Notes: a model not told the origin generated them from the letters alone. Positions 10,217-27,784 are shown, numbered from the stretch's first letter. The stretch: DNA of 49,394 bases from a virus (IMGVR_UViG_3300016476_001020:1-49394), one strand, 5' to 3'. Numbers and translations are program-made.

Positions 10217-10223
10217 ATAATTC

Positions 10224-10252: not shown

Positions 10253-10265
10253 TAGTAGAGTGAAA

Positions 10266-10572: not shown

Positions 10573-10647
10573 TGGTACTGAGTAGAGGATTCGAACCTCA
10601 TCTGCCGCAGTCACAATGCGGAGTGCAACCATTACACTTTACTCAGC
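10573..10647 (-). tRNA. tRNA-His(GTG)
   Basis: CCGCA-TTGTGAC-TGCGG, cloverleaf, CCA. Confidence 0.9.
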
Positions 10648-10959
10648 ATTAACTACGTTATACATTCCTGTAGAAAAGTTTACTATAGATTCGCCAAAAG
10701 CTGAGATAGCAAAAAGCAAAAATCCCATAGTAATTAGCGAGTAAACAATCCACCGCTTGTTGAAAGGATTAGCTGATATAGCTAACGCAAAAATTTCATT
10801 ACTTAGTAGACGTATAGCAATTTCAAATTTACCACTATCTTCCTCTTCTACCGCTAAGACTTTTGTTGGTCTTGGCATAATTGGTTTAGGTGTTATTGTT
10901 TTAACAGGTGTTACTGTAGAAGAGGTAGGTGCAGTATTTTGCGTAGGAGTTGTATTCAT
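10639..10959 (-). CDS. membrane protein, hypothetical
   Basis: Pro/Thr-rich N-terminus, C-terminal TM helix; stop inside tRNA-His. Confidence 0.6.
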   Translation of the reverse strand: MNTTPTQNTAPTSSTVTPVKTITPKPIMPRPTKVLAVEEEDSGKFEIAIRLLSNEIFALAISANPFNKRWIVYSLITMGFLLFAISAFGESIVNFSTGMYNVVNAE

Positions 10960-10972
10960 AAAGAATCCAATC

Positions 10973-11049
10973 TGGTGCTCTTAGTAGGGATCGAACCCAC
11001 AACCCTCGCGTTCGAAGCGCGATGCTCTAATCCGTTGAGCTATAAGAGC
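10973..11049 (-). tRNA. tRNA-Arg(TCG)
   Basis: TCGCG-CTTCGAA-CGCGA, CCA. Confidence 0.9.
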
Positions 11050-11103
11050 TAATTTTATATATGATACAACTAAACTGACAACATGTCAAGTCTAATTTTA
11101 AAA

Positions 11104-11176
11104 TGGCGCCCCCTAGATGAGTCGAACATCTGTAAGCTGGCTTCGTAGACCTGCCACCGGTTCCGCCGGAGAGGGC
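11104..11176 (-). tRNA. tRNA-Arg(ACG)
   Basis: loop CTACGAA, short D-arm, CCA. Confidence 0.8.
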
Positions 11177-11181
11177 ATTAT

Positions 11182-11256
11182 TGGTACTCCTGAAAGGAAT
11201 CGAGCCTTTGTCTCTGCCATGTCACAGCAGCGCTCTGACCATTGAGCTACAGGAGT
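11182..11256 (-). tRNA. tRNA-Val(GAC)
   Basis: CTGCT-GTGACAT-GGCAG, CCA. Confidence 0.85.
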
Positions 11257-11271
11257 GTGATGAAGCCCTAG

Positions 11272-11916
11272 TTAAAGGGCTTCAGTTACTAGTTTAACGC
11301 CATCAAACGTCTTGGTAGCAGTTTCGCTTTCAGTGTTAACTGCTACTACACGAGCAATAGACATTGAGTCGTTTAGAAGCAAGATATTACCTACTTCTAC
11401 TTGACCCTCACGGCCACGGTAGGAGTAACGGTTCTGACGATTAGTACCGCCAGTTAGGAACTCTACATCAAACGTGTATGGCATTACGCGCTTTAGTTCG
11501 CTTTCAGCGAAAGCTTCAAAGTTGCCGTTGTCTTGCATCTTTAGTACATACTTACCATCGCTGTCGATAGCAAGACCCGTACCAAAACGATTGCCTTCTA
11601 GGGTTTTAAATAGCTTGTCTTTCATGTCAAAATCTTTCATGTTTTTATCTTCATAAGGTACGTCGTATTCATATGGCACATAGTCTGAGGCACTACGAAA
11701 ACCGTTTTGTTTTCTACTTGAGAGATACTCACAGCGTAGACAATGCCCTCTGACTTCTAGCACTTTTTGTGGTGCTTCTCCGCCCACAAGCCGCACTATG
11801 TCACCTACTTTAAATTTACTGTATTGTGGTGATGTAGCAGACGACTTGTACTTAGGTAGATCGTAATCATAATAGCCGCTTCTTACTGCATCTATAAAAC
11901 GTATTTCAGGTTCCAT
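11272..11916 (-). CDS. hypothetical protein (SH3/KOW-like FKVGDIV segment)
   Basis: 214-aa ORF between tRNA genes. Confidence 0.6.
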   Translation of the reverse strand: MEPEIRFIDAVRSGYYDYDLPKYKSSATSPQYSKFKVGDIVRLVGGEAPQKVLEVRGHCLRCEYLSSRKQNGFRSASDYVPYEYDVPYEDKNMKDFDMKDKLFKTLEGNRFGTGLAIDSDGKYVLKMQDNGNFEAFAESELKRVMPYTFDVEFLTGGTNRQNRYSYRGREGQVEVGNILLLNDSMSIARVVAVNTESETATKTFDGVKLVTEAL

Positions 11917-11932
11917 TATATACCTATATGGT

Positions 11933-12008
11933 TGGTGCTGCTTGAGGGACTTGAACCCCCGACCAACTGATTACTAATCAGTTGCTCTACCGTCTGAGCT
12001 AAAGCAGC
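11933..12008 (-). tRNA. tRNA-Thr(AGT)
   Basis: ACTGA-TTAGTAA-TCAGT, canonical body, CCA. Confidence 0.9.
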
Positions 12009-12009
12009 G

Positions 12010-12543
12010 TTATTTTTCGTGCCAAGTACCGATTATACTAAGAGCGTTTCGCATATGTTTAATCAGTAATCCGTTCTCAGCGTCTGTTCTAACTAATCTA
12101 CGTTTTCCTAATACTTTCTCAAAATCATAATCATTATCATCGAAAAGTATATAGTCTAAGTGATTGGGAGCATACAACTCAAGATATTCTTTTACTTCGT
12201 GAGCTCGAGTCATGCCTCGCTCATAAAATTTGCTATCATTATTAGGATTCGTTTTCCATAATCTAGCAAACTCGCCACGAAAACCAGCTGCTCGAAAAGT
12301 AGCTATTACCCACTGATACTGATTTGCACTGTCGCAGGTCAGATACTCTTTCCAAGTAGACATCAGAACAAATTCTACACGATCTCTAGTATCATGAATT
12401 TTATTCATAAAGGAGATTGCTACAGGATCAAACACGTTCCACATGTCAAGTGGATTACCGCTAGATAGCTGCACTCTTGTAGAAGTAAATACTCCATCAA
12501 CATCTAAAAATACTAAGTATTTTGCTTCAAGTTTTTTAGTCAT
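12010..12543 (-). CDS. HAD phosphatase, Swiss Army Knife RNA-repair-like
   Basis: FLDVDGV, MSTWK, ILFDD motifs. Confidence 0.75.
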   Translation of the reverse strand: MTKKLEAKYLVFLDVDGVFTSTRVQLSSGNPLDMWNVFDPVAISFMNKIHDTRDRVEFVLMSTWKEYLTCDSANQYQWVIATFRAAGFRGEFARLWKTNPNNDSKFYERGMTRAHEVKEYLELYAPNHLDYILFDDNDYDFEKVLGKRRLVRTDAENGLLIKHMRNALSIIGTWHEK

Positions 12544-12561
12544 TTTACTTCTCGATAAAAT

Positions 12562-12636
12562 TGGTACACCGTACGGGTTATGATCCCGTCTCTCTATCTT
12601 GAAAGGATAGCGATCTCACCAGAAATCCAACGGTGC
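12562..12636 (-). tRNA. tRNA-Glu(TTC)
   Basis: CTATC-CTTTCAA-GATAG, variant T-loop, CCA. Confidence 0.85.
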
Positions 12637-12641
12637 GTATG

Positions 12642-12716
12642 TGGTGCTCTAAGTAAGACTCGAACTTACAACCCTCGCTTTACGAAAGCGCAGCACTACC
12701 TTTGTGCGATTAGAGC
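12642..12716 (-). tRNA. tRNA-Thr(CGT)
   Basis: loop TTCGTAA, CCA. Confidence 0.85.
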
Positions 12717-12721
12717 GTTAT

Positions 12722-12805
12722 TGGTGGGAAGCAGTGGAATCGAACCACGCCCGATTAAAGAACGGTTTTACAGACCGCATACTACACCAGTAGCTGATAC
12801 TTCCC
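12722..12805 (-). tRNA. tRNA-Tyr(GTA)
   Basis: GCGGT-CTGTAAA-ACCGT, long variable region, CCA. Confidence 0.85.
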
Positions 12806-12811
12806 ATATAT

Positions 12812-12885
12812 TGGTTGTCCAGGAAGGTAACGATCCTTCGTCTACGAGTTATCAGCTCGTTGCTCTACCTTTGAGCTACAGGACA
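12812..12885 (-). tRNA. tRNA-Ile(GAT)
   Basis: ACGAG-CTGATAA-CTCGT, CCA. Confidence 0.9.
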
Positions 12886-12957
12886 GAAATTCAGGGACAT
12901 GATTGCTTTAAAATGCCGAAGTCCAGCGGCATTGCTCTTTTACAAAAGAGCGTAAAC

Positions 12958-13035
12958 TGGTGCCGAAGGAGAGGGTCGAACTCTCTACGCAAGGTTTTTC
13001 AGACCTTCGCTCTACCTACCATGAGCTACAACGGC
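12958..13035 (-). tRNA. tRNA-Phe(GAA)
   Basis: AAGGT-CTGAAAA-ACCTT, CCA. Confidence 0.88.
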
Positions 13036-13171
13036 GTTATTCTTTAGGCTCTACTAGCAAGCGCAGACTAGCGATTTAACGGATTAGTGGCGCTCTTATC
13101 CGTACCATGCATTTGGCTCTACCTTCGTATTCAGGCGACTTAGCTGCATTTCAAGTAGCAGTACCGAGTAT

Positions 13172-13249
13172 TGGCTCCCTCTGCTGGACTCGAACCAGCC
13201 TCATTCTCGGTTAACAGCCGAGCACCATCACCTGGATAGCTTAGAGGGA
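13172..13249 (-). tRNA. tRNA-Asn(GTT)
   Basis: CTCGG-CTGTTAA-CCGAG, CCA. Confidence 0.9.
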
Positions 13250-13258
13250 ATGATAGTT

Positions 13259-13336
13259 TGGTGGACCTTATCGGAGTCGAACCGATAACACACTTGAGTT
13301 ACAAATGCCTGTTAGCCATTTACACAGTCAAGGCCC
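13259..13336 (-). tRNA. tRNA-like RNA with Ala acceptor and aberrant anticodon loop (GT-AAC-TC)
   Basis: GGGCCTT/AAGGTCC-ACCA (G3:U70, A73), canonical T-arm. Confidence 0.6.
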
Positions 13337-13342
13337 GTATAG

Positions 13343-13420
13343 TGGTGTGCCAGGTGAGACTCGAACTCACGTTGTCGCGGGTTAAGAGGCCGCCGCTAAA
13401 ACCACCTCAGCTACTGGCGC
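13343..13420 (-). tRNA. tRNA-Lys(CTT)
   Basis: loop CTCTTAA, CCA. Confidence 0.85.
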
Positions 13421-13595
13421 ATTATTTTGAAGTGCATAGTATAAACACCAGTAAGGCTCTAGAACTACTGGTTCTCACTGCTAGCGTATCTTGGTGTCGG
13501 GTGGCCAAACCCAGTACCGTCGAGAGCTGATTTAAGGACGTTCGACCCTTCTGTCTGGAAGAAACTGACCACAGCTACTATACACGTCAAAATAA

Positions 13596-13673
13596 TGGTG
13601 AACCGAGAGGGGATCGAACCCACGTATGACAGAGATTAAAAGTCTCCCGCTAAACCAACTCAGCTATCGGTCC
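13596..13673 (-). tRNA. tRNA-Lys(TTT)
   Basis: GGAGA-CTTTTAA-TCTCT, CCA. Confidence 0.9.
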
Positions 13674-13841
13674 ATTAAGAGTACTCAGAAAAACTAGTAG
13701 CTTATCAGAGTACTCTCGCTTTAAAGACGCTTTTGCGTCACGACGCTCAGTTTTATAAGGCTTAACATGAGCGCCAGTTTTGCGTTTAACCAGATGCTGT
13801 ACAAACGGGTTACGCGGTTTTGGAAGTTTCTGCTTCTTCAT
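13650..13841 (-). CDS. small basic protein (RNPFV..KRKTGAH), reads into tRNA-Lys
   Basis: Lys/Arg-rich ORF; stop lies inside the tRNA. Confidence 0.6.
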   Translation of the reverse strand: MKKQKLPKPRNPFVQHLVKRKTGAHVKPYKTERRDAKASLKREYSDKLLVFLSTLNGPIAELV

Positions 13842-14163
13842 AATAAGGCTCTTCTTTCCAATTCATAGATTTTAATAATTTTGCAGCATTGGTTCTGCGC
13901 TTAATCTCACGTCTAGGGTAAAAAAAGTCAGGTAATGTGCCTTGTACTTGTACGATTTTGTAACTATGGTAGCAGTTAGGCTTAAACTTAGAATACCAGT
14001 CAAGCAACTCTTGCTTAACTTCGCTAGAAAGTAGCTGATACCACCACTCACGCTGTTCATACGGGATTTCTTCGCAATGATCTGAGTGTTTTTGAATCGC
14101 GTATAAGTAAAACATTTGTTTCCTGTTTTTCTTTATATTATTAATATACGCGATTCTACACTA

Positions 14164-14667
14164 CTAAGCAAGCTGTAAGTTAAAGTCGTTGCACAAAGCA
14201 GTCAAGTCTTTTTTATGATACAAATTGTAGATTTTTATACCATGATCGTGTGCAATCCGCATAGCCTGTGCTGTACCTCCGCTCATCTTACCGTCGCTAG
14301 TCCAGCATACTAAGAAAGAAGAAGGATTACTCAGGTTATCTCCAAGCACTTGGTATGAATTACGTGACATTAGTTGTAAACCAGCCCTGCTAAGCCGTTC
14401 TGGAGCAGGATGATAGTCATAAACCATTTCTTTATTCATAGGCGGTATAATATACGTATAGTTATCCGCATATTTATCGTTAAACCCGCTCCACGGAAGA
14501 TAGATTCGACGATACTTAGCCCCGGCTTCAAAAGCGCTATCGGCACCCTCTGCACCACCTGAACGCAAGATCCAATTGTCATTAGAAAGTGCAGTTGCTA
14601 TAGCAGTCATTAAAGTTTGAATGTCTAGTGGAGTCTCACGACTTCCGATACCAGTATAGTATTTCAT
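14164..14667 (-). CDS. SLOG/DprA-Smf-like nucleotide-binding protein
   Basis: YTGIGSRETP, LRSGGAEGAD, GGTAQA; start reassigned to ATG at 14667. Confidence 0.75.
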   Translation of the reverse strand: MKYYTGIGSRETPLDIQTLMTAIATALSNDNWILRSGGAEGADSAFEAGAKYRRIYLPWSGFNDKYADNYTYIIPPMNKEMVYDYHPAPERLSRAGLQLMSRNSYQVLGDNLSNPSSFLVCWTSDGKMSGGTAQAMRIAHDHGIKIYNLYHKKDLTALCNDFNLQLA

Positions 14668-15116
14668 AGCTGATATACTACCGCCTGGACTGTTTTCAGC
14701 TCGCTCTCTATAATTGCAGAGATTACAGACCAATCACCGCCACCAAGTGCGGCACCAATTGTTGGCATAGCAATAGTTGAACCACTATACACTTTATTTA
14801 ATGAATGCATAATTTCTGCAACAGCGTCATAGCTTACGTAACGAACAGGATTTGGTCCTAGTTGTTCTGCAGCCTTGCCATATTCTTGTTGAGTAACAGC
14901 ATTGATTATAGTCTTACTACCTACATTAACAGGTAGATACTGTCCTAACCTAAACCCTTTGGCACACCATAAATGATACTCTTCAAAAGCGCTAGGATAA
15001 AGTGCTTTGACTATTTTTGCTACACCTGACCCCATTACACCTTTAGAGTTACACCCGTGAAGAATCACAGGTATTTCAGTACTGAATAAATCACCTTTGC
15101 GATACTCAATTCTCAC
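14664..15116 (-). CDS. macro domain protein (ADP-ribose / Appr-1''-p processing)
   Basis: GDLF, HGCNSKGVMGSGVA, MPTIGAALGGGDW. Confidence 0.85.
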   Translation of the reverse strand: MRIEYRKGDLFSTEIPVILHGCNSKGVMGSGVAKIVKALYPSAFEEYHLWCAKGFRLGQYLPVNVGSKTIINAVTQQEYGKAAEQLGPNPVRYVSYDAVAEIMHSLNKVYSGSTIAMPTIGAALGGGDWSVISAIIESELKTVQAVVYQL

Positions 15117-15595
15117 AGAGTTACTCCGTACTTACGACATAGTTCACGTATTTTAGCATAGTCTTGTTTATGCTCAATAATATAACTTTGTTGTAACATA
15201 AATAGTAAATCAGCAAGGATTTCTTCTTTTGTATGGACTTTAGTATTCATCACGTTTCCAAAAGTTAATGTAGTAGTAACCTATCATAATAAAGAAACCG
15301 CCTTCTCCATATATCTCTTCGTTTAGCCAGCCAACACCTATCTGAAATGTGTCGCCTCTATCTATAAAGAAAAGATTACCCATGTGCTAGCAACTCCATA
15401 TGCTTACGAATATAACGCATGAACAGCATAGCTTTATCCGAAGCTAAGAAAGTAGCTGTGCCTATATCCGATACCGGTACAGGAAAACTAAAACCATCTT
15501 CAGTCTTATACCAAAGACTACCATCAAAGTAGTGAGTAAACGTTACATTTCCACGAACGCGGTCTTTTAAAGTAATCATTATTTTACCTAAAGGT

Positions 15596-15667
15596 TGGTA
15601 GTGCCGGTGGGAGTTGAACCCACCCTACAGGCTTATGAGACCCGCGTCCGAACCACTCGGCGTCACC
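15596..15667 (-). tRNA. tRNA-Met(CAT), atypical D-arm junction
   Basis: CGGGT-CTCATAA-GCCTG, CCA. Confidence 0.75.
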
Positions 15668-15996
15668 ATTATTTTTTTCGCTTAAGTGCTGATACTTCTT
15701 TTTTAGCAGCAATTAAAGCATCTTTATATTCTCTATTTTGTTTAGTCAGATAAGCTATAACATGAGCTGCTAGATGTATATGATTATCTGGAGGCTCGTA
15801 CGAAGCATTAAAGGCTGCATTTTTTAACTGATTACGCCAGCTATCGCCCTGATCCTCTCCAAACAGTAATTTGGCTTGCTCTTCTACTAAAGTCCATTTA
15901 GTAGAATACATGAATGGGCCACGACGCTCGCCTTTTTCTACAACGTATTTAGGTTGCCATTCTGGATGATATTTTTCCATTATGCTATCGTATAAT

Positions 15997-16071
15997 TGGA
16001 GGTCGTGGGGAGAATCGAACTCCTACGCGTAGTTTTGCAGACCAGCGATGCACCCAGGCAAATCCACGACC
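15997..16071 (-). tRNA. tRNA-Cys(GCA)
   Basis: loop CTGCAAA, U73, CCA. Confidence 0.85.
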
Positions 16072-16078
16072 ATATAAT

Positions 16079-16110
16079 AAAAAACCCCTCACAGATATTA
16101 TCTGGAGGGG
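16079..16110 (-). terminator. intrinsic terminator (attenuator) just upstream of tRNA-Cys
   Basis: CCCCTC-CAGAT-AAT-ATCTG-T-GAGGGG-TTTTTT. Confidence 0.8.
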
Positions 16111-16138
16111 CTACACAACTGTAAATAACGCACGTGCG

Positions 16139-16207
16139 TTAACAGCCAGTACCGCCTCCGGTATTGGTATAATTTTTCTCACAAATGTTGCGAAATTCGA
16201 CGTGCAT
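16139..16207 (-). CDS. leader peptide MHVEFRNICEKNYTNTGGGTGC (not in ORF track)
   Basis: SD AAGGA before ATG; overlaps the antiterminator 5' strand. Confidence 0.75.
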   Translation of the reverse strand: MHVEFRNICEKNYTNTGGGTGC

Positions 16208-16234
16208 AATTAGTCCTTTTTTATCTATAAAATA

Positions 16235-16263
16235 ACTATAACTGAAAAAACAGCAGGTAGCAA
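16235..16263 (-). promoter_or_regulatory. sigma70-type promoter of the leader/attenuator
   Basis: TTGCTA-N17-TATAGT. Confidence 0.7.
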
Positions 16264-16281: not shown

Positions 16282-16371
16282 TGGCAGAAGGCAGGGTACT
16301 CGAAACCCATACGGTTTCCCGTACACAACGCTTTCCAGGCGTGTCCGGCGCGCCTGTCCGGTTTACCTTCT
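16282..16371 (-). tRNA. tRNA-Ser(GGA)
   Basis: loop CTGGAAA, long V-arm, G73, CCA. Confidence 0.85.
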
Positions 16372-16377
16372 ATAATC

Positions 16378-16467
16378 TGGCGGAGTAGTCCGAGCACGAT
16401 TCGGATGGCATTTCTGTCACGCATTGCTTAGCAGGCAAGCCCAGCAACCTTACTGGCTATCTACTCC
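16378..16467 (-). tRNA. tRNA-Ser(GCT)
   Basis: loop CTGCTAA, long V-arm, G73, CCA. Confidence 0.85.
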
Positions 16468-16671
16468 ATTATTCATTTCTTTTAGATGTTGTTTAGCGAT
16501 TATATCGTCTCTCAAATCAAGACACGTACAACAGTAACAACGCATAACTTTAGTTTTTTTGCCGCGCATGTTAATATTAGCAGCGGCAGGATGGTGTGGG
16601 CCAGCTTTCTTTTTTCCAACCCAACGATGTTTCAAATTACGACCTTGACCAAAAACTGGTGATTTAGCCAT
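16450..16671 (-). CDS. small basic Cys-cluster protein, reads into tRNA-Ser
   Basis: CYCCTC; stop inside tRNA. Confidence 0.55.
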   Translation of the reverse strand: MAKSPVFGQGRNLKHRWVGKKKAGPHHPAAANINMRGKKTKVMRCYCCTCLDLRDDIIAKQHLKEMNNGVDSQ

Positions 16672-16672
16672 A

Positions 16673-17017
16673 TTATCCTTGATATTTTGTTGCTAAACCT
16701 AGCGATAGCATTTCAACATTGATATTAGTATCATCAATATATATGTCTGCTAGATAGCGACCATACTTTTCTTTTTTATCTTTATAAGTTTTGATAACGA
16801 TAGAAGTACCTACAGGTAGCTTTTCTCGTAACCAATCTCTTGATTTAATGCCTTCGGGTCTTTCTACTCCAGAAATCTCAGGAGCATCAATACCTGCTAG
16901 TCTTAAAGACTGATTATGAATCCAAGTATCAAAACCTAAATCAATCGAGGCTCTAATAGTGTCGCCATCGTAAATAGAGGATACGATTGCTCGATAGGTG
17001 TAAGAAGGCTTATTCAT
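16673..17017 (-). CDS. thermonuclease (SNase-like)
   Basis: IYDGDT, RLAGIDAPE, KYGRYLA. Confidence 0.9.
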   Translation of the reverse strand: MNKPSYTYRAIVSSIYDGDTIRASIDLGFDTWIHNQSLRLAGIDAPEISGVERPEGIKSRDWLREKLPVGTSIVIKTYKDKKEKYGRYLADIYIDDTNINVEMLSLGLATKYQG

Positions 17018-17151
17018 TTATTATCCTTTGAAATGTACGCTATAACATCATCTAGTATCTTAGATGGAATATTTGCAGTTATTAAAGTAGCTTTTAAAAA
17101 AAGCAAACGTCTAACTAATTCTTGTTTAGCGTATCTTTCCATACCTGCTCC

Positions 17152-17237
17152 TGGTACCCAAGACAGGAGTCGAACCTGCACCGATATTATCGCACAGAGT
17201 TTGAGTCTGCTATGTCTGCCAATTCCATCACTTGGGC
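17152..17237 (-). tRNA. tRNA-Leu(CAA)
   Basis: GCAGA-CTCAAAC-TCTGT, V-arm, CCA. Confidence 0.9.
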
Positions 17238-17444
17238 GTCAATAACTCTTAATTCTTGTATAGTTCTTTGACTAAAATGCCGTCTAGGGTTTCCGCAGCT
17301 AGGACAAGAGCAGATAGCAGGGCTATGTGCTCTTAAACCTATTCTAGCAGGGTTTATACCGTCAAACCAATAGTTTTTAAAGGTTTTGGATACCCATTGT
17401 TTTTTCTTTTTTTCTTGGAACCTACGAAAAGCTAAACCTCTCAT
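17187..17444 (-). CDS. small basic protein with CSCPSCGNPRR, reads into tRNA-Leu
   Basis: SD AGGAG; Cys motif; stop inside tRNA. Confidence 0.65.
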   Translation of the reverse strand: MRGLAFRRFQEKKKKQWVSKTFKNYWFDGINPARIGLRAHSPAICSCPSCGNPRRHFSQRTIQELRVIDAQVMELADIADSNSVR

Positions 17445-17457
17445 TAGAACTCCTAAC

Positions 17458-17678
17458 CAGAATGTTTGGGGAAAAGCAGATTATAAGTCTGCTGGCACCT
17501 TGCCATACTCCCCATCAAAGATACACTGATTCGGGGACAATGCTAATTCGCAAACGAACATTGCCTTTATCCGTGGATACATATCTGTCGTGTTTCATAC
17601 AGTCCATATCACAGTGTAGCTGTGGTGGGGAGTATCGGAATCGAACCGATGAATTTTCTTGTTTGCTGTAAACATTCT
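17458..17678 (-). ncRNA. Y-RNA-like element E7, a circularly permuted tRNA(TAT) with intervening sequence
   Basis: AGAATGTT-TACAGCA...T-arm-ACTCCCC-ACCA [109 nt] GGGGAGT-D-arm-GCAGA-CTTATAA-TCTGC...AACATTCTG. Confidence 0.8.
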
Positions 17679-17684
17679 AAAACT

Positions 17685-17767
17685 TGGTAGGGGCGGCGGG
17701 ACTCGAACCCACACTCCGAAGAACTAGTTCCTAAGACTAGCGCGGCTACCAATTACGCCACGCCCCC
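17685..17767 (-). tRNA. tRNA-Leu(TAG)
   Basis: CTAGT-CTTAGGA-ACTAG, CCA. Confidence 0.9.
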
Positions 17768-17772
17768 ATAAA

Positions 17773-18396
17773 TTAAAACTGACCTTCAACTCCGGCAAAG
17801 GCTGCTAAAGAGTCGCCATCTAGTGACTTAGAAATCTTTACATAAAGACCTAGATTATCTTGAATGCCATAATGAATACCTACCGCGATAGCTTCGCCTG
17901 ACGAACCACCGCTAGTAATGCCACCAATACCTGCACTCCAAGACCATACACCTGCGCCGCCTTGACGCATTTCTAGACCACCTAAGCCAGCTACTGCTGC
18001 CATATCAGACTGATACTGACCATAATCAACATCTTTACCGTCAACACCATCTTTACCGTCAACACCATCTTTGCCGTCAACTCCGTCACGACCGTCTTTG
18101 CCGTCAACGCCATTTAGACCATCTTTGCCATCAACACCGTCACGACCGTTTTTACCGTCAACTCCGTTTAAGCCATCTTTACCATCGCGTCCAGGCAACC
18201 CTTGTGGACCAGCAGGACCAATAGGGCCTTGAGGACCAGTGGCCCCTTTAAGGTCTAGATATACTTTTTTATTACCGTCTTTGAAGTAAAACTGCTTTAC
18301 AGACTCATCATAAAAAACTGGTTCTGCGCTACCCGCCATAGCGGCGCCTACAGACACAGTTAATAGTAAGGCAGAAGAAAGTAGAAGATTTTTCAT
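17773..18396 (-). CDS. secreted collagen-repeat protein with YadA-like beta-anchor
   Basis: signal peptide, Gly-X-Y repeats, C-terminal amphipathic strands ending in F. Confidence 0.65.
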   Translation of the reverse strand: MKNLLLSSALLLTVSVGAAMAGSAEPVFYDESVKQFYFKDGNKKVYLDLKGATGPQGPIGPAGPQGLPGRDGKDGLNGVDGKNGRDGVDGKDGLNGVDGKDGRDGVDGKDGVDGKDGVDGKDVDYGQYQSDMAAVAGLGGLEMRQGGAGVWSWSAGIGGITSGGSSGEAIAVGIHYGIQDNLGLYVKISKSLDGDSLAAFAGVEGQF

Positions 18397-18441
18397 TTTA
18401 TTCCTATTTTTAAAGTTAAGCCCCCACCACAGAAGCTACTT

Positions 18442-18516
18442 TGGTTGGGAAGGCACGGCTCGAACGTGCGACCTGCTGATTCAAAGTCAGTTATTCTACC
18501 ACTGAACTACTTCCCA
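18442..18516 (-). tRNA. tRNA-Gln(TTG)
   Basis: loop CTTTGAA, CCA. Confidence 0.9.
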
Positions 18517-18866
18517 ACATTATTTCGTTTTATCACATTATCATCTTTGTCATAAAGTGTTACGACTGAAGGTATAATATTTCTAGCTTTTAGCTTACAA
18601 GCATACCATATATTTGCTTCCTCCAAGGTATCTACCTCTACAGAAGCCCACTCGCCTGTTGACGGGAATATATGGTGTACTTTAAACATGTTATATCCTC
18701 TATATATTTAATATTACCACATAGTGTAGGATATAGCAAGACTTATTTCGATGAGGCCGGTGCGGTATCTGACAAAGCAGTAACGCTACTTTGTTTTCCC
18801 ATGCTCCGTTTGCAGTAACCTGCTGTACTAACTAGCTATCTTAGTACACTTTCCTTGCCTCAAACT

Positions 18867-18970
18867 TGGTGGACATTTGGAGATTTTCACTCCGCTGACT
18901 AGCATCTTTATTATTGTCGCATACTATACAATTTATAGCGCTGCCAGTCTTTACTATATGCTGAATGCCC
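18867..18970 (-). ncRNA. Ala-acceptor tRNA-like RNA lacking D-stem and anticodon loop
   Basis: GGGCATT/AATGTCC-ACCA (G3:U70), stem GACTGGCA/TGCTAGTC, T-like arm GGAG-TGAAAAT-CTCC. Confidence 0.6.
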
Positions 18971-19066
18971 GTATTCATTCATGTAGCTGCGTCTTACCGT
19001 AGTGTACCGGCCTAAAAGGTGAGCATTACAAGGCATGCTTCCGCAGGCGCTACTGTCCTTGTATTT

Positions 19067-19141
19067 TGGTAGTCGGAGAGGGACTCGAACCCCCGACAGC
19101 TTGCGTGTAAAGCAAGAGTTCTACCGCTGAACTATCCGACT
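19067..19141 (-). tRNA. tRNA-Val(TAC)
   Basis: CTTGC-TTTACAC-GCAAG, CCA. Confidence 0.9.
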
Positions 19142-19144
19142 ATA

Positions 19145-19798
19145 TTATTGTTTATATTTATCTACTAAGCTATAGTATAATTCAAAATCTTCTTTATAAG
19201 CTTTGTAGACGTCTTGTTTAAGCTGTTCATCATAGAACACGTCAACTAATCTTGAAGTATCACCTGGGAATTTGTTAATAACTCTTAGCGGAGATTTAAC
19301 TTCAATACCATTGTCTTTACAAAAATCTAACAAATGGTTTTCTAAATTGTCGTGTAGCCAATAGGTATGGTGTAAATCTTTACTTATGAAGGAGCATTGT
19401 GGCTGTGCTTGTTGAGGCTTATCTTGAAAAACACCGTTTACTATGAGTGACTTAAAATGCTTTGGAGTCGGTAGTTTAACAGAATAAAACCCGTCTCTTA
19501 CTTTGTGTAAGTACAAACTTAGCTGCCTATGTAACGGATTACGAATAACACCTATAAAATGAGCATTACTAGGTACTATCCCGTGCTCTATAACATAAGT
19601 GCTGTCTACATTAGCATGAGGCAGTTTTGGAGAATTTTTATTGTAGATCTTAACGTATTCACTACCAGTCCAAGTAAATATTTTACTTAGCACATCTTCC
19701 TCGTGGCACACATTTTCATAAAGAAAATGCGTTGCTGCACAGGAGGCAGTTTTTGGTATTTTAATAAAACAAGTGTTAAGTCTTTTAATATAAATCAA
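19145..19798 (-). CDS. sulfotransferase family protein
   Basis: FIKIPKTAS (5'-PSB) and IRNPLHRQLSLY (3'-PB). Confidence 0.7.
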   Translation of the reverse strand: MIYIKRLNTCFIKIPKTASCAATHFLYENVCHEEDVLSKIFTWTGSEYVKIYNKNSPKLPHANVDSTYVIEHGIVPSNAHFIGVIRNPLHRQLSLYLHKVRDGFYSVKLPTPKHFKSLIVNGVFQDKPQQAQPQCSFISKDLHHTYWLHDNLENHLLDFCKDNGIEVKSPLRVINKFPGDTSRLVDVFYDEQLKQDVYKAYKEDFELYYSLVDKYKQ

Positions 19799-19861
19799 AC
19801 TACTTACTTTCTATAACGTCACTATTTACACAATACTGACGTTTTATTATACGCAATAAAT

Positions 19862-19937
19862 TGGCAGGGGTGTAGAGAATCGAACTCTACTCTCAAGCTT
19901 TTGGAGGGCCGCGTATATCCCAGTTTACCTCACCCCT
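19862..19937 (-). tRNA. tRNA-Trp(CCA), weak anticodon stem
   Basis: loop CTCCAAA, A1-U72, G73, CCA. Confidence 0.7.
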
Positions 19938-19941
19938 ATAA

Positions 19942-20067
19942 CAGGTTCATTTATAATGACAGCCGCGTCTACCATTCCGCCATACCTCCCATAAGCGAGG
20001 CAGTAGGACTCGAACCTACACGTTTTTCAACAGCCGTTTTTTCATATATCTATGCTGTATTGAACCT
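19942..20067 (-). ncRNA. Y-RNA-like element E8 (permuted tRNA-Leu-like module)
   Basis: AGGTTCA-A-TACAGCA...V-arm, T-arm GTAGG-TTCGAGT-CCTAC, closed acceptor, Leu-type D-arm GGCGGAATGGTAGACGC...TGAACCTG. Confidence 0.8.
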
Positions 20068-20072
20068 AATAA

Positions 20073-20147
20073 TGGCGACTCTACGGGGACTCGAACCCCG
20101 TTCACCTGGTAGACAGCCAAGTGTAATAACCCATATACGATAGAGCC
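20073..20147 (-). tRNA. tRNA-Asp(GTC)
   Basis: CTTGG-CTGTCTA-CCAGG, CCA. Confidence 0.9.
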
Positions 20148-20151
20148 ATAA

Positions 20152-20285
20152 AAACGGATTGCTGTTACGCCAAAAAACCCTGACCCGGCATATCGTCGTT
20201 TCAAAATGCCGGTTGTTTTTTTGAAATTATCTCAAACTCGGTTTACTTTTTAAAGGATGGCTGCTTTTAAGCCGACCTACCGTTT
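20152..20285 (-). ncRNA. 23S rRNA H43-H44 (L11-binding) mimic with insert
   Basis: GGTCGGCTTAAAAGCAGCCATCCTTTAAA...GCGTAACAGC versus 23S GTTGGCTTAGAAGCAGCCATCATTTAAAGAAAGCGTAATAGC. Confidence 0.75.
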
Positions 20286-20293
20286 ATATATTT

Positions 20294-20369
20294 TGGTGGA
20301 CCTTAGGAGGATCGAACTCCTGACCTCCTGAATGCAAATCAGGCGCTCTCCCAGCTGAGCTAAAAGCCC
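20294..20369 (-). tRNA. tRNA-Ala(TGC)
   Basis: CCTGA-TTTGCAT-TCAGG, G3:U70, CCA. Confidence 0.92.
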
Positions 20370-20452
20370 GTATAGTTGGCTTTCCGGGTCTACATACGTT
20401 AAACCTATTACCCACTCAGGTTCGCGAAAACTCTGATAATGTGGCGGAAACT

Positions 20453-20545
20453 TGGCGGAGAGCGGGTATACTCGAAATCCAAGCGGCTACTAACCGCTCC
20501 CACCGCTTTCAAGGCGGGTCTAGCACCCTGGCTAGTTCACTCTCC
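20453..20545 (-). tRNA. tRNA-Ser(TGA)
   Basis: loop CTTGAAA, long V-arm, CCA. Confidence 0.85.
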
Positions 20546-20681
20546 GTATTGGTGCCTGCTTGACGTCTATGGCGCTATCCATAAAATCTAAATGCTCAGC
20601 AGTTAGCCACTATAACTTCTCTAGCTTAATCTTGCCGAAGCTCATCTAGTCTTTCATTATAGTCTTTTTGTCGTCCGAAAC

Positions 20682-20743
20682 TGGAGCCGATGGTAGGAAT
20701 TGAACCTACAGATGCATCTGCGTACCCGCTACGCTACATCGGC
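20682..20743 (-). ncRNA. anticodon-less mini-tRNA (62 nt)
   Basis: GCCGATG/CATCGGC-TCCA, D-arm and T-arm intact; only AGATGCATCT between them. Confidence 0.7.
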
Positions 20744-20751
20744 ATAACTCT

Positions 20752-20825
20752 TGGTGGAAGCGAAGGGAATCGAACCCTCTGACAGCAATCTTGCAAGGAT
20801 CACCCGTAACCCCATTACCGCCCCC
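20752..20825 (-). tRNA. tRNA-Ala(TGC), second divergent copy
   Basis: TGATC-CTTGCAA-GATTG, G3:U70, CCA. Confidence 0.8.
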
Positions 20826-20996
20826 GCTATTGGTCGTATGGCAATGACGGTAATGAGCCGTCCACGCGCGTTTTCTGGCCGCCATACTAAGCTTCCCTCT
20901 TCGTCTAACATTATTACAACATTCAAAGTGACATAGCCGAGGATCAATCGACCATGTAATAATGTATGTTGACTAAAGTTCCACTGTTCTTATTTT

Positions 20997-21072
20997 TGGT
21001 TGCGGTGGGAAGGACTCGAACCTTCGATCTTCTGGTTATGAGCCAGACGAGATGCCGCTTCTCTACCCCGCA
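20997..21072 (-). tRNA. tRNA-fMet(CAT)-like
   Basis: TGCGGGGTAGAG 5' end, TCTGG-CTCATAA-CCAGA, CCA. Confidence 0.85.
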
Positions 21073-21090
21073 ATAATTAAACTGTATAAT

Positions 21091-21238
21091 TGAAGAAACA
21101 CAAGGGGTTAGCTAGACCACAACGAGGCTACTGTTTGCAACCAGTAGTTGCTCCTAACTTTCAAGACAAGGAATCGAACCAAGACCTCCCGCAGTGGGCG
21201 CGCTACCGTTACACCATCTTTACTTATCTGTTTCTTCA
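21091..21238 (-). ncRNA. stem-closed RNA containing a shrunken tRNA module
   Basis: TGAAGAAACA/TGTTTCTTCA ends; D-arm GGTGTAACGGTAGCGC, T-loop GGTTCGATTCC. Confidence 0.55.
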
Positions 21239-21764
21239 GTAATAAAGTCTAAGTATTATAATGTCAGTACCCCCGGAGTACTCGGCTGTAGGTTAGTTAC
21301 TCCCACAATATCCTAACTACCACAGTTAGGCCACCGAATGCTACCCACACAAAGGGGCTAAGTTGCTGTACGAAGTTCTACTGCTAAAAATAGCAAGCGT
21401 TCTTCTATAGTCTTAGAGGAATCTATGCTCAACTCCAGACCTAACACTTTTTCATAATAGGTTATAAACGCTTGCTCAAGTTGCTCTAAAGCTTTACGTT
21501 CTTTTACTAGAAGTGCCATGTAACACCTATAAAATTTTAAAGTTAGTACTGCTTAGTTCGTCTAATTAGCTAAAAAAGACTTATAAGTGATTAGTCGCGG
21601 TGTCTTGTTCACCCGACGATTGACAGAAAGCACAAATCAACAAGACTTCTAGCTTTTGCCATCCGCTCCAGATTGAGGCTCAGAGCGTCTTATTCCCAAT
21701 ACTAACATTAAAATCTTATACTAGTAATATATACTGTGTTTTACCATAAGGCAAGAATTAATTT

Positions 21765-22607
21765 GCATCGCCTGAGACTACAGCTTTGCAAGAGAGCCTT
21801 CACAGTGTACCGCGTTCCTTGCGAGAAGCGTTGCTGCGTAATCCACTGAAGCCTATGTCCTTGCGGGACAGTCAACGGTCATTCAGTATCTCTCAGTGCT
21901 GCTTTTTATAAGGTGTAGCTTTTCACCTATCATACGTTGATACTCATCCGTCTATCCTTCGTCTGCCTTGCGAGCAGTTCACAGTCGCTAAACCGTTACG
22001 CTATCTTTCTGAATGAACAACTCAACCTTGCGGGCATCGTTGCACTGACTTCCTTGCGGGCCAGTATTAAGCACCTTTCTCAACGTACTGGAGTAGACTT
22101 TCGCTTTTTCTATGTATAAAATTGCATTTATCCAAAATAAATTGGGCTTTGAACCCTGCGATAACCTACTGAGATGTGCTACTCCCGCTGCTTCATGCCT
22201 TGTTAGACACAAAATACAACACACCTCCTGTCTTTCACCTTGCGAGCTACTCAACGGCTTTTCAAGTATCTAGGTATTACCCTTTCAACTCTAAAGCTGA
22301 TAATTTGCCTTTCTGCGCAAACAGTCAGACTATTATCTACCCATTGGTATTACATGTTCGTTAGTTTGGCTGAAAATCGTGAGGGCGCCAACCCCCTTAT
22401 TGCTCACCGACCGGCTCTGCAACTATCTTTTCAGACGATCTTCCTAACTTAGCACTTACTGCCCAACTTATTGTTAGACAGAGACTACTTACGCATCTGC
22501 GAGTAATCTTAACCTGGGCTTGCATAGATGAACCATTGCTGGCGCGAGTATGTAGGGTTTCTCGCTTTGGGTGTATCACTACACTTATTCTATGACGCTA
22601 TGCCGCC
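21765..22607 (-). ncRNA. GOLLD-like giant ornate ncRNA (~840 nt)
   Basis: No real ORF; many CGCAAG/GAAA tetraloop hairpins; in tRNA array; promoter TTGCCT-N17-TAATAT at 22623-22651; family assignment from recall. Confidence 0.7.
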
Positions 22608-22898
22608 AATCTTTATAATATCATATTAAAGTAAAAAACAGTAACAGGCAAGAACAATTTTAAGTTATTGATCTAAGTTCTTCTGTTACTTTTTGAATCC
22701 TAGCCGCTAGTGTATCACTAGTGTTTGGATTAAACGTCTCGCCATATACGACTAGCATAAATGCTTCCATAGCAGATTCTAAGTCTTTTACAGCATCAAG
22801 CTCTTCTTGCATTATTTTGACCCTGGACCATCAGACAGATACAGAATACCAACAATCAATAGAACTACGAAAAACAACCACATAGCGATTTCCTATAT

Positions 22899-22973
22899 TG
22901 GAGCGGAGAAAGGGGATCGAACCCTCGACCTACTGCTTGGCAAGCAGTTGCTCTACCACTGAGCTACCTCCGC
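22899..22973 (-). tRNA. tRNA-Gly(GCC)
   Basis: ACTGC-TTGCCAA-GCAGT, U73, CCA. Confidence 0.92.
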
Positions 22974-23570
22974 AATTTCTAGATTATTAGTTTAACTTAA
23001 CTAAGCATACCCAGCAAGTTGCAAATTCAAAACAAAATTTTCAACTAGGAGTTTTGTGGCAGCTATTACTGCTACTAACTCTGGATTATCTGAGTTATTA
23101 AGTATACTACAGATATTTTCAGCAATGAGCAAGTACGCATCTTCTTCGCGAATGGGCAATAGCCCCCAGTCAATCGGATCAGATAACTCGAACTCTTGCG
23201 CTAGTTCTGCAATAATTTCAGGATTATACAAATGTTCCCCTTGTCCTTGCTGCTTGGGCAACCCGCTCTACGAGCGTTTTTGCAGGAACTGCGCCACGCC
23301 ATACTGCACGAGGAGCTTTATTCTGCTTACACCAAATAGCAAACATACGACCACGAGTATACTTTACAGCACAATTTCGGTCTGCAATATCGTAGTCGTA
23401 CGGCAGATTTTTCATTACACTTTCGTACCCTAGCTTGAAGTAAGGGTGCTTAGTATTAAGCATAGCAAAAGTTTCTATAGAAACTTCGCGATGAACTAAG
23501 TTTCGCATTTGCTGTTCCTTTTCTGTTATAATTAAATATAAATCAAAAATAAGGAATAAGCAAGGCTAAA

Positions 23571-24119
23571 TTAGCGTCCGTAGAACTCTGTAGGTCCAGC
23601 TTTTTTAGAATCGAACAGATACCAACAGCAGTTGTCTTTGCCTGTACCAACACTGTCTTCTATCCACTTAACTCTACCAATAGATACTATCTTGACGAGC
23701 CTATTTTTTACTAATTCGCTAGACTGCACTGTGTGTATCCAGTCGGCGTCAAATAATAACCAAGTTGGTCTTAAATCAGAAAATGTTTTAATAAGTTCGT
23801 GTAGTAAAAAACCACTAGCTTTAGTACGTATCCAAGGAGGGTTAGTAATAATTAAATCACACCCAGATACATGAGTTTCATCTAAATCAAGAGCTTCTAG
23901 TACAGATATACTAGTATCACGCGGCTCAATATCAGATGCCCATAAACATTCAGAAAAAGTATGTAGGTCTTGTATGTGGTCTATAAGACGACCGTCTCCT
24001 GCACAAGGTTCGGCAAAAGTGAAAGTCTTAGGTAAATGAGGTATTAAGGCTTGTACAGCCGCCAACGGAGTTGGGTAATAATCCCTATCTACTCTTTTAA
24101 AGTCACTTCTTTTGCCCAA
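23571..24119 (-). CDS. DNA N6-adenine methyltransferase
   Basis: DYYPTP, EPCAGDG, ITNPPW. Confidence 0.85.
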   Translation of the reverse strand: MGKRSDFKRVDRDYYPTPLAAVQALIPHLPKTFTFAEPCAGDGRLIDHIQDLHTFSECLWASDIEPRDTSISVLEALDLDETHVSGCDLIITNPPWIRTKASGFLLHELIKTFSDLRPTWLLFDADWIHTVQSSELVKNRLVKIVSIGRVKWIEDSVGTGKDNCCWYLFDSKKAGPTEFYGR

Positions 24120-24289
24120 TAGCTATCTCCCTCAGTGCTATGGAAGCACTAACGGCAGCATCAAGTTCTTCACGAGTTGAACTAAGTAAAACGCAGCTAA
24201 AAAGTTCCTCAATGGTTAAACCAGAGAAACAAGCGTTGCCCACGGTACTGCCAAAATAATTATAATCAGTAATTTCGATTTTCATATAA

Positions 24290-24455
24290 AAATACGCCTA
24301 AGTAATTACACCAAAGCGGATTCCCACCGCCTTCTATTCACCTAAGTAGACCCTCTTGTTTATGAGACAAGCGTGCTTTGTGTGTGGGAGCACAGCAGGT
24401 GAAACTTATTGTCCTATAATAAAGTCTCCCAACTTTACTATAGTAAGGCGTATTT
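24290..24455 (-). ncRNA. stem-closed RNA with CAT anticodon arm and T-like arm
   Basis: AAATACGCCT/AGGCGTATTT ends; CTTGT-CTCATAA-ACAAG; GCGG-TGGGAAT-CCGC. Confidence 0.55.
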
Positions 24456-24567
24456 ATATATAAAAACCATGTAAAAATACCTACCCATTACCCGTTGACG
24501 AGACGGCATATGTCTGGTTTATTTATCTTCGTCCAGAACGACCAGGCGTCAAATAGGTATTTATATC

Positions 24568-24649
24568 TGGTGCTGGCGGTGAGACTCGAACTCACGGTGT
24601 GGTATGCCGCCTTACAAGAGCGGTGCAATCGCCGCTATGCGACGCCAGC
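24568..24649 (-). tRNA. tRNA-Thr(TGT)
   Basis: CCGCT-CTTGTAA-GGCGG, enlarged variable loop, CCA. Confidence 0.88.
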
Positions 24650-24964
24650 ATGGTGAGACGCTAACCGTGGCGTCTCGCGAGTTTATTACGTAACTACCCG
24701 CTATGTTTGCAGTAGCAGCGCCCGCTTAGCACTAAGGGTCGTAGGCCACCATTACGTGTCCTGCAAATAAGCTCCCTGCCAAGCTTACCGTCCGCAGAAA
24801 GCGTGTCATTATGCAGGATATACACACTTCAATGCTCTTTACGCCATAGACAGTATCCTCACGGCTTTGATACCATGCCTACTATTACCCGAGGTCTCAC
24901 CCCTAAAATCCGTAGCAAACTAGTACTACGCGAGAGAAGCTGTTGAACACTAAGTAGGTATTTT

Positions 24965-25039
24965 TGGAGCGGACGATGGGGATCGAACCCACGACGAACA
25001 GCTTGGAAGGCTGACACTCTACCACTGAGCTACATCCGC
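24965..25039 (-). tRNA. tRNA-Gly(TCC)
   Basis: loop CTTCCAA, U73, CCA. Confidence 0.92.
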
Positions 25040-25358
25040 GTTTATACGTGATACATCTAAAGGACTTTTACCCCTGTATACCTAGAGAGAAGTTGTATCA
25101 TTCCTCTAACAGTCTTATCAAAAGGGAGCGACCCTAATGAGGATTTAAACATACTATTATGACCACTATTTTGGCGCTAGACTGCGCATGGGTTAGTATG
25201 TTAAATATTAAATTAGCATAGTTCTCACATTATTGAACTATAGGCTATTAGTATCGTGACTTATCTGGATAACCAGCAGTAACTAATTAGCTATATCCTT
25301 CCACCCGAAGATTGAAGGGCGATTGGCGTCATATCATATACTATCCACAATTTATAAA

Positions 25359-25446
25359 CTGGATGGTCTGTGGACCTCTATGATACTATCCAACCAATGC
25401 TTGATAAAGTATTTTACAATACAATCTTGGTTGCAGTATCCATCCA
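25359..25446 (-). ncRNA. Y-RNA-like element E10
   Basis: TGGATGG-A-TACTGCA ... CCATCCAG. Confidence 0.55.
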
Positions 25447-25452
25447 AAAAAC

Positions 25453-25914
25453 TTAAGCAGATGCCCAGGCTTTAATTGCTTCAGAAATTTTAGCAAGCTC
25501 TGGATTATCTACGAGACCACCTTTTGTTCTATCGTAAATCTTTAAAGGTAGTTTACAAGTACCGTACTTAGCTACCATAGCTACAACACGAGGCAGAACA
25601 TACACATAAAAAGTATATTCATTCTCTGGTTTACGCTTGTGCTCTACACTAGCATAACTCTTACCTGCTAGATAAGCGCGAGCTAGAAATGTAGCACGGT
25701 TTTCGTTGCGAACATCCCAGCGACGGTGACGGTTTAAGCTAGTATATTGGTTAAACGGAGTAAAGTTATGAAGCTTTACTTCTTCGTTGTTTCCAGCAGC
25801 TTTATGATCGGTAATATACCAACGTACTTGTTTTTTTAGTTTACGCTCTTCAAATCTAATAATTTGCGCTTCAACGCCTAAATGCTTAGATTTAATTTTT
25901 AGTTCGATAGACAT
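25453..25914 (-). CDS. basic hypothetical phage protein under a structured leader
   Basis: 153-aa ORF with SD AAGGAG. Confidence 0.75.
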   Translation of the reverse strand: MSIELKIKSKHLGVEAQIIRFEERKLKKQVRWYITDHKAAGNNEEVKLHNFTPFNQYTSLNRHRRWDVRNENRATFLARAYLAGKSYASVEHKRKPENEYTFYVYVLPRVVAMVAKYGTCKLPLKIYDRTKGGLVDNPELAKISEAIKAWASA

Positions 25915-25920
25915 TAATTT

Positions 25921-26003
25921 CTCCTTGATTATGTTAATATAAAGTATAGTTAAGCATTAATCAAGGTTAAGGTGGTTTTTTAATCTACATCTGGTATTCC
26001 TTA
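25921..26003 (-). promoter_or_regulatory. mini-ORF leader ATG TAG ATT AAA AAA CCA CCT TAA plus SD-sequestering hairpin
   Basis: AAGGA SD, ATG at 25990; CCTTGATTA pairs with TAATCAAGG of the downstream SD. Confidence 0.6.
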
Positions 26004-26004
26004 T

Positions 26005-26812: not shown

Positions 26813-26817
26813 ATATT

Positions 26818-27193: not shown

Positions 27194-27199
27194 AATAAA

Positions 27200-27780: not shown

Positions 27781-27784
27781 CTAT

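Follow-up and report, generated by a model that had tools for sequence, protein, structure and literature searches.

A candidate leader-peptide attenuator whose codons match the tRNA genes behind it in a phage contig and its relatives

The window analysed here is the whole of a 49.4-kb phage contig (IMGVR_UViG_3300016476_001020:1-49394), in which a short leader open reading frame (ORF), an antiterminator and an intrinsic terminator stand on the minus strand directly before a block of tRNA genes. An original prediction, made from the sequence alone, had proposed that this leader is an attenuator whose codons match the downstream tRNAs, and that interpretation was supported by sequence comparison and folding models. 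We give a probability of roughly three in four to the reading that the module is a ribosome-coupled transcription attenuator controlling the tRNA block behind it, and the leader module itself is real, conserved and very probably regulatory. As modelled, the leader works like a multivalent leader-peptide attenuator, with every feature testable in silico present.

Structure of the leader and its match to the tRNA block

The promoter-like site, the Shine-Dalgarno (SD) sequence AAGGA 7 nucleotides (nt) 5' of the ATG and the 22-codon ORF all lay at their predicted positions (Table 1). No PHROG family was found for the 22-codon peptide. As proposed, an intrinsic terminator (hairpin 16111-16084, -18.4 kcal/mol, six T) stands just before tRNA-Cys, and the predicted antiterminator (16159-16104, -25.1 kcal/mol) contains the leader stop codon and takes the terminator 5' arm, the two structures being mutually exclusive in the predicted folds through their common 5' arm (16111-16104). 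Folding of the whole leader gave a z of -4.3. The competing hairpin that had also been proposed does exist (-10.4 kcal/mol), but it loses on untranslated RNA and is minor.

The block at 16071-10573 holds 15 standard tRNAs (Cys, Met, Lys x2, Asn, Phe, Ile, Tyr, Thr x2, Glu, Val(GAC), Arg x2 and His), and the twelve amino acids of leader codons 1-16 were found to be exactly those of the block (C, M, K, N, F, I, Y, T, E, V, R and H). This identity, a central claim of the original prediction, depends on a tRNA-Cys that was called only at the relaxed ARAGORN threshold (ps90) and lies below the Rfam gathering score. The absence of A, D, L, P, Q, S and W from the block was likewise as claimed, and their tRNAs, with those for G, occur upstream of the leader only. 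In 2,000,000 draws made by window codon usage, 15 of 15 codons were served 315 times and the full set arose twice; among 342,052 stop-free base shuffles the corresponding counts were 155 and 3.

Table 1. Positions of the leader, the tRNA block and other features of the window
Feature	Position	Strand	Remark
Promoter-like site TTGCTA-17-TATAGT, for leader	16235..16263	-	9/12 matches; equivalents precede relatives' leaders
Shine-Dalgarno AAGGA	16214..16218	-	7 nt 5' of ATG
Leader ORF, 22 codons, MHVEFRNICEKNYTNTGGGTGC then stop	16139..16207	-	sequence and ORF list
Predicted sensor codons 2-13 (H V E F R N I C E K N Y)	16169..16204	-	nascent-RNA folding
Minor alternative hairpin, not dominant	16145..16168	-	-10.4 kcal/mol
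Antiterminator 5' strand (Gly-Gly-Gly-Thr-Gly-Cys codons and stop)	16136..16159	-	predicted fold
Antiterminator 3' strand, ending in terminator 5' arm	16104..16131	-	predicted fold
Intrinsic terminator hairpin and six-T tract	16079..16111	-	hairpin 16111-16084, -18.4 kcal/mol
tRNA-Cys(GCA), first gene of block	15997..16071	-	ARAGORN ps90
103-amino-acid ORF behind tRNA-Cys	15669..15980	-	without family
tRNA with CAT anticodon (Met; Ile2 also possible)	15596..15670	-	
Macro-domain protein	14664..15116	-	PF01661
DprA-like protein	14164..14664	-	phrog_768
Internal promoter-like site	14143..14171	-	could bypass attenuator for Lys to Arg(ACG)
tRNA-Lys(TTT)	13596..13673	-	
tRNA-Lys(CTT)	13343..13420	-	
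tRNA-like element, odd anticodon arm	13259..13336	-	ARAGORN ps95: Val AAC; minimum free energy fold: 5-nt loop
tRNA-Asn(GTT)	13172..13249	-	
tRNA-Phe(GAA)	12958..13035	-	
tRNA-Ile(GAT)	12812..12885	-	
tRNA-Tyr(GTA)	12722..12805	-	
tRNA-Thr(CGT)	12642..12716	-	
tRNA-Glu(TTC)	12562..12636	-	
HAD_SAK_2 protein (HAD domain of Swiss-army-knife RNA repair proteins)	12010..12543	-	PF18143
tRNA-Thr(AGT)	11933..12008	-	
tRNA-Val(GAC)	11182..11256	-	
tRNA-Arg(ACG)	11104..11176	-	
Internal promoter-like site TTGACA-17-TATCAT	11061..11089	-	11/12 matches
tRNA-Arg(TCG)	10973..11049	-	
tRNA-His(GTG), last standard tRNA of block	10573..10647	-	
Upstream tRNA region: Arg TCT, Leu, Trp, Pro, Gly, Thr TGT, Ala, Ser, Asp, Val TAC, Gln, others	16282..29811	-	
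GOLLD RNA	21769-22227	-	RF02032, 168 bits; within upstream tRNA region
DUF2828/DUF7788 RNA-binding protein gene	7021-9693 region	-	phrog_850
Permuted alpha-type transfer-messenger RNA (tmRNA), tag ARNIITANDNFAPVSLALAA	45437-45830	+	near ribosomal protein S21 gene at 44642-44914

The predicted ribosome-dependent switch

Nascent RNA was modelled with the terminator 3' arm lacking its last 7 nt and with a ribosome placed at each codon in turn. In the window, the terminator 5' arm was sequestered with a probability (P) of about 0.95 when the ribosome stood at codons 2-13, and was free from Thr16 on (sequestered with P 0.17 or less); the alternative structures thus folded with the expected polarity, on at codons 2-13 and off from codon 16 onward. 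The claim that a stall on any depleted host tRNA permits antitermination therefore held in the model for codons 2-13, with Thr14 marginal and Thr16 an ineffective sensor. In untranslated nascent RNA the arm was sequestered with P 0.93, and a nascent-RNA switch was obtained in 23 of the 30 leader families described below. Among E. coli controls put through the same test, thrL passed and trpL passed more weakly, both giving the two-state pattern seen in the window.

These folds are consistent with the following mechanism. As long as host tRNAs abound, the ribosome would follow RNA polymerase closely and cover the Gly codons and stop that form the antiterminator 5' strand, freeing the terminator 5' arm, and transcription would end near 16079. 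If any sampled tRNA were short, or no ribosome were loaded, the antiterminator would form before the terminator 3' arm emerged, and read-through would follow, expressing the 15 tRNAs together with the macro-domain, DprA-like and HAD RNA-repair-type genes. The new tRNAs would in turn relieve the stall, a negative feedback. We infer that the leader is translated, that stalling on it causes read-through, and that the selective cause is loss of tRNA through host anticodon nucleases or infection-driven decay.

The leader in related phages

Contigs fetched via the neighbouring DUF2828/DUF7788 gene showed the same layout before Cys/Met-led blocks with unrelated peptides, for example MLCHLQSPMNAKRSVFTGEYIRMRGGSI in L002 and MHHTMTIRCEKFYNYARGGRVC in L130, and thus bore out the expected conservation of the architecture. 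In L130, the closest relative, the block has no Val(GAC) call and the sensor part no Val. A motif built from these relatives, consisting of the antiterminator strand and the terminator only and excluding the inner helix, was then used as a search model. It had a tRNA at most 1.5 kb downstream in 71 of 83 viral sites, redundant relatives included (63 of the 69 with enough DNA), against 2 of 120 in cellular genomes and 6 of 120 for a terminator-only control, both among the matches listed. Further terminator-only motifs were near a tRNA in 5 of 120 among the matches listed and in 1 of 14, and such motifs were set aside as poor bait for leaders.

The inner antiterminator helix, which lay outside any search motif, had a median z of -2.2 and a z below -2 in 18 of 30 families. 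The antiterminator strand began 4-8 codons 5' of the stop in 28 of 30 families, and an SD of at least four matches was present in 20 of 30. In strain-level contigs the leader-attenuator module was kept and its flanks were replaced; the five strain differences within it among the 40 of 110 listed (one synonymous, one G-U to A-U pair, two in a bulge and one loop deletion) are compatible with frame and fold. A MAFFT alignment of ten leaders misplaced L259, out of structural register.

Several further features of these loci were recorded. In 9 of 30 families (L001, L002, L003, L166, L228, L238, L243, L250 and L276; 0.012 expected each) a boxA-like motif lay no more than 250 nt 3' of the terminator. 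The window has no such motif, which may serve to shield the long, untranslated tRNA transcript against Rho. The sequence TATAAATA, presumably a T4-type late promoter motif, adjoined the leader start in 8 of 30 families (L001, L002, L132, L207, L238, L243, L263 and L283). A gene of about 145 codons, ferritin/Dps-like by eye, lay directly upstream of the leader promoter in L001 (6466-6900) and L002 (6222-6655). The A-starting anticodon AGT of tRNA-Thr at 11933-12008, rare in bacteria, was present also in L130, L259, L078 and L228, and L259 carried an element similar to the tRNA-like element at 13259..13336, on which the original prediction was silent. In L357 (3440-3620, +), a Leptospiraceae metagenome-assembled genome contig, the antiterminator and terminator motif preceded a seven-tRNA array, possibly a cellular or prophage case.

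Correspondence between leaders and blocks in 30 families

For a census of codons, leaders were picked by structure and a start rule, and not by their codons. From 128 candidates, 26 without an ATG frame were dropped, including the GTG-started first leader of L064, as were 7 with a duplex weaker than -9 kcal/mol, including the probable leader L139; 2 of 32 families had fewer than five tRNAs, and 30 were tested. Some tRNAs were missed by the callers. Each block served 0.81 of the sensor codons of its own leader, compared with 0.64 (standard deviation (sd) 0.025) for permuted blocks, and the leader/block Jaccard index was 0.74 compared with 0.53 on permutation (0 of 20,000 permutations). Trp, for example, was found in the leaders of 16 of 17 blocks with tRNA-Trp and of 0 of 13 blocks without it, and for 11 of 19 amino acids the individual association reached p<0.01 (Trp 16/0/1/13, Gln 18/1/1/10, Asp 9/3/1/17). 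No signal was obtained in the +1 (857 of 5000) or +2 frame (513 of 5000). The match held under seven block definitions and persisted after the first six tRNAs were skipped (0.48 vs 0.37). Amino-acid diversity alone, considered as a marker of leaders, was weak (median z 1.3).

Leaders sharing a contig allowed the same comparison within one genome. In five same-contig pairs, 167 of 211 codons were served by the leader's own block and 39 of 211 by the sister block, and every leader fitted its own block better. Composition thus tracked the leader's own block across families and within genomes, the comparison by which the original prediction had proposed to be judged. Extreme cases were MFATSYSYCYYGSSSSSVSYGYESEEGSM, before the block of L276 with only Glu, Ser, Tyr, Gly and Cys tRNAs, and MTYFICKFKEYMT, before the C, I, Y, F, K, E, M block of L149. 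L064 has three leaders; once the third block had been seen to serve P, E, Q, H, L and R, its leader, MKTTRLHTQLLEQPRIS, was located and proved to contain all six. The L276 block (8090-12300) was also seen to hold many isodecoder copies.

The leader-block match was seen at the level of the amino acid, and not of the anticodon overall. Anticodon compatibility, as originally claimed, was true in the window, and across families Arg CGN (25 of 27 vs 16.0 expected, z 3.7) and Leu CTN (16 of 19 vs 11.3, z 2.3) followed the codon box of the block; overall, 185 of 254 leader codons were readable by a block tRNA under wobble rules where 183.8 were expected. Leaders also showed a synonymous bias towards CGC (25 vs 4.6 expected), CTC (16 vs 3.3) and ATT (39 vs 24.4), a preference that suggests selection on decoding.

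Comparison with known systems

Multivalent leader-peptide attenuators are known from enterobacterial amino-acid operons (ilvGMEDA and pheM), and the enterobacterial attenuators thrL, trpL and hisL likewise possess a short leader ORF, an antiterminator overlapping its end and an intrinsic terminator. The phage leader differs in that it samples about 12 amino acids with one or two codons apiece, where those leaders have runs for one to three; its targets are tRNA genes, whereas trp, his and thr leaders precede biosynthetic genes, and the tandem codons of such leaders were not found in it. It also differs in having no dominant 1:2 protector, the arm being sequestered in naked RNA with P 0.09 in trpL and 0.93 in the window, and thus untranslated phage RNA is predicted to read through. 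The trp-type protector, which gives termination when the RNA is untranslated, was not seen in any family (arm free in 0 of 30). The trp/his-type logic originally proposed thus stood as regards leader-peptide attenuation in silico, but not as regards naked RNA; with untranslated RNA antiterminated, the logic would be like that of the whiB7 upstream ORF (uORF).

In mycobacteria, according to the available text of a whiB7 study, the make-up of that uORF, with its diverse codons, determines the kind of shortage to which it responds; termination follows efficient translation, read-through rises when the start codon is lost, and tRNA knockdowns activate the system (PMC10274678). As far as described there, the whiB7 system is chromosomal, controls a transcription factor and is Ala-enriched, and differs from the phage leader in having no one-to-one match of leader codons to controlled tRNAs. 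The TrcR paper (PMC10272220) reportedly relates to the Anabaena trn operon (L-array). This supernumerary tRNA array is induced upon impaired translation, but it is controlled by a repressor at promoter repeats and is not codon-specific, and the string 'attenuat' is absent from the main text of the paper on it (PMC8421152). T5-type phage tRNAs rescue infection from the tRNA-cutting defences retron-Eco7 and PrrC and, from the part of the report available, use a strong promoter, unlike the phage leader-attenuator (PMC11555353). Inducible tRNA arrays and counter-defence by phage tRNAs were therefore already known with other controls, and the new element would be a leader attenuator matched to phage tRNA genes.

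A candidate cultured case is the Caulobacter phage CcrRogue (JX100814). In its 45-codon gp083, 42 of 44 codons specify P, T, K, L, H, A or S, which are the amino acids served by the 12 tRNAs downstream of the terminator. Another leader, of 31 codons, stands before an F, V, I, Q, R block and, counted across its full frame, matches that block in 16 of 30 codons. At gp083 the RNA geometry is unlike that in the window, and the consulted portion of the CcrRogue genome paper ascribes the tRNAs to codon usage with no mention of such control (PMC3556154). A simple detector run on tRNA-region stretches of seven cultured phages found leaders in CcrRogue alone, and none in T5, DLP_6, RSP15, BUCT-ZZ01, RcXuper or DSS3_MAL1; in T5 no leader-attenuator was found in the tRNA region 22000-45000. 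A review of viral RNA regulation, in the text available, does not mention leader attenuation of phage tRNA genes (PMC9693318), and no description of it was found in the literature searched, mostly open-access main texts, in agreement with the original statement that no described example was known.

Opposing evidence and rival explanations

A number of observations weigh against the attenuator reading. On full-length RNA at equilibrium the terminator won at every ribosome position and 0 of 30 families switched; since it likewise won with full-length E. coli thrL, trpL and hisL, the switch must be kinetic. In the nascent test hisL failed, and Thr14 of the window (P 0.23-0.95) marks a blurred limit of the sensor. 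The leader's own 3' half was the best duplex partner in only 9 of 30 families, strict criteria detected a promoter for the leader in no more than 7 of 30 and loose ones in 15 of 30, and of the 4 sites of a second, window-like motif none lay near a tRNA. As to the census, the wobble count given above was at expectation, Val (1 of 6 vs 3.5, z -2.1) and Ala fell below it, per-amino-acid association was not significant for A, C, G, S, T, V and Y and borderline for F, and a weak residual signal appeared in the reverse complement (85 of 5000). L130 has Asn and Ala codons without a called tRNA, and L083 (0.36), L241 (0.45) and L209 (0.55) matched poorly. Of the five same-contig pairs, four involve just two families, and since families are related the permutation counts overstate independence. 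Finally, the caveat that internal promoters could bypass the attenuator stands: both promoter-like sites are present in the window (14171-14143 and 11089-11061), and such sites occur inside 23 of 30 blocks, so the attenuator may boost rather than gate the distal tRNAs. Some of these sites in relatives overlap the boxA-like motif and may not be promoters, and the census still covers distal tRNAs, which argues that read-through matters for them.

These sites bear on an alternative that we consider unlikely, namely that the same switch mainly reports general translation failure (uncoupling, an initiation block or ribosome damage) and/or governs the first genes only, distal tRNAs coming from internal promoters and the census being secondary. 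Because untranslated RNA leaves the arm free in no family, any loss of ribosomes would give read-through, and several leaders are near-pangrams before near-complete tRNA sets. A sensor of general failure, however, needs no match to its block, whereas the match observed is in-frame, block-specific within one genome and retained for distal tRNAs; and control of the first genes only is opposed by the window's block itself, in which no terminator-like site was found outside the tRNAs.

It is less probable still that, in nutrient-poor hosts, the switch evolved as a sensor of amino-acid starvation (low charging) and not of tRNA destruction. Classical attenuators and, in the text available, whiB7 do respond to lack of amino acids (PMC10274678), and the phage match is by amino acid rather than by anticodon overall. 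The genes controlled, however, are tRNAs and not biosynthetic enzymes or synthetases, and extra tRNA would supply no amino acid, while the Arg CGN and Leu CTN codons follow the codon box of the block. A stall cannot distinguish starvation from tRNA loss, so both may trigger the switch.

Two further explanations are very improbable. A constitutive terminator of the upstream tRNA operon, beside an unrelated small peptide gene or chance ORF, would accord with the terminator winning at equilibrium and with promoter-like sites near chance in number (36 vs 27.0 expected, sd 5.3), but not with an antiterminator conserved through changing sequence at a fixed spacing to the stop, nor with peptides that are unconserved yet block-matched in composition. 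The leader promoter-like site itself resembles a motif present 12 times in 7000-33000. A ribosome-free switch, flipped by T-box-like direct tRNA binding or by a phage antitermination protein, is recommended by an antiterminator preceding tRNA genes and by the boxA-like motif of other families, but is hard to reconcile with a signal carried by some dozen in-frame codons that follow an SD and ATG; neither the T-box nor any other Rfam family came near its threshold there, the T-box model having no match at gathering score or up to E 10.

Genomic context of the window

The window, from a large phage, has 34 tRNA calls at default and 43 at relaxed settings, and its best DNA match was a freshwater metagenome, possibly the sample it came from. 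Its host is probably an alphaproteobacterium, given the permuted alpha-type tmRNA. A blastn search for a close cultured relative matched only an upstream tRNA-Ser and short unrelated pieces, and all tblastn matches were below 60% identity. No relative of the 103-amino-acid ORF at 15669..15980 was found. No leader-attenuator was detected for the upstream tRNA region (16282..29811, -). This region includes a collagen-like protein of G-x-D-G repeats whose N-terminus is signal-like, encoded among tRNA genes (17773-18396, -), a tRNA-like gene whose anticodon is of CTA type and whose counterparts in relatives are called Pyl or suppressor (26818-26893, -), and a long tRNA-Ile(TAT) (29216-29307, -), the last two recurring in relatives. 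Several long intergenic stretches at 20000-28200 (-) lack ORFs and Rfam matches other than GOLLD; they are possibly further non-coding RNAs. Degenerate tRNA-like elements flank the DUF2828/DUF7788 gene (7021-7097, 8765-8835 and 9622-9693, -), a locus that we take to be reminiscent of Ro60/Y-RNA loci.

Significance

It has long been asked why phages carry tRNA genes. That a leader spells out the amino acids of its block implies that the tRNAs would be produced as needed, when decoding slows, and speaks for compensation of lost tRNA rather than for a constant tuning of codon bias. If the attenuator reading is true, leader-peptide attenuation extends to non-coding RNA genes and to viruses, and the phage leader offers a compact multi-tRNA stress reporter. 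More broadly, we see about even odds that diverse large phages run a modular tRNA homeostat, in which the codon-census leader of each block audits the matching host tRNAs and switches the block on upon their depletion by anticodon nucleases or infection. Such a homeostat, if true, would be an inducible counter-defence, and its leaders would be a readable record of the tRNAs attacked by each host lineage.

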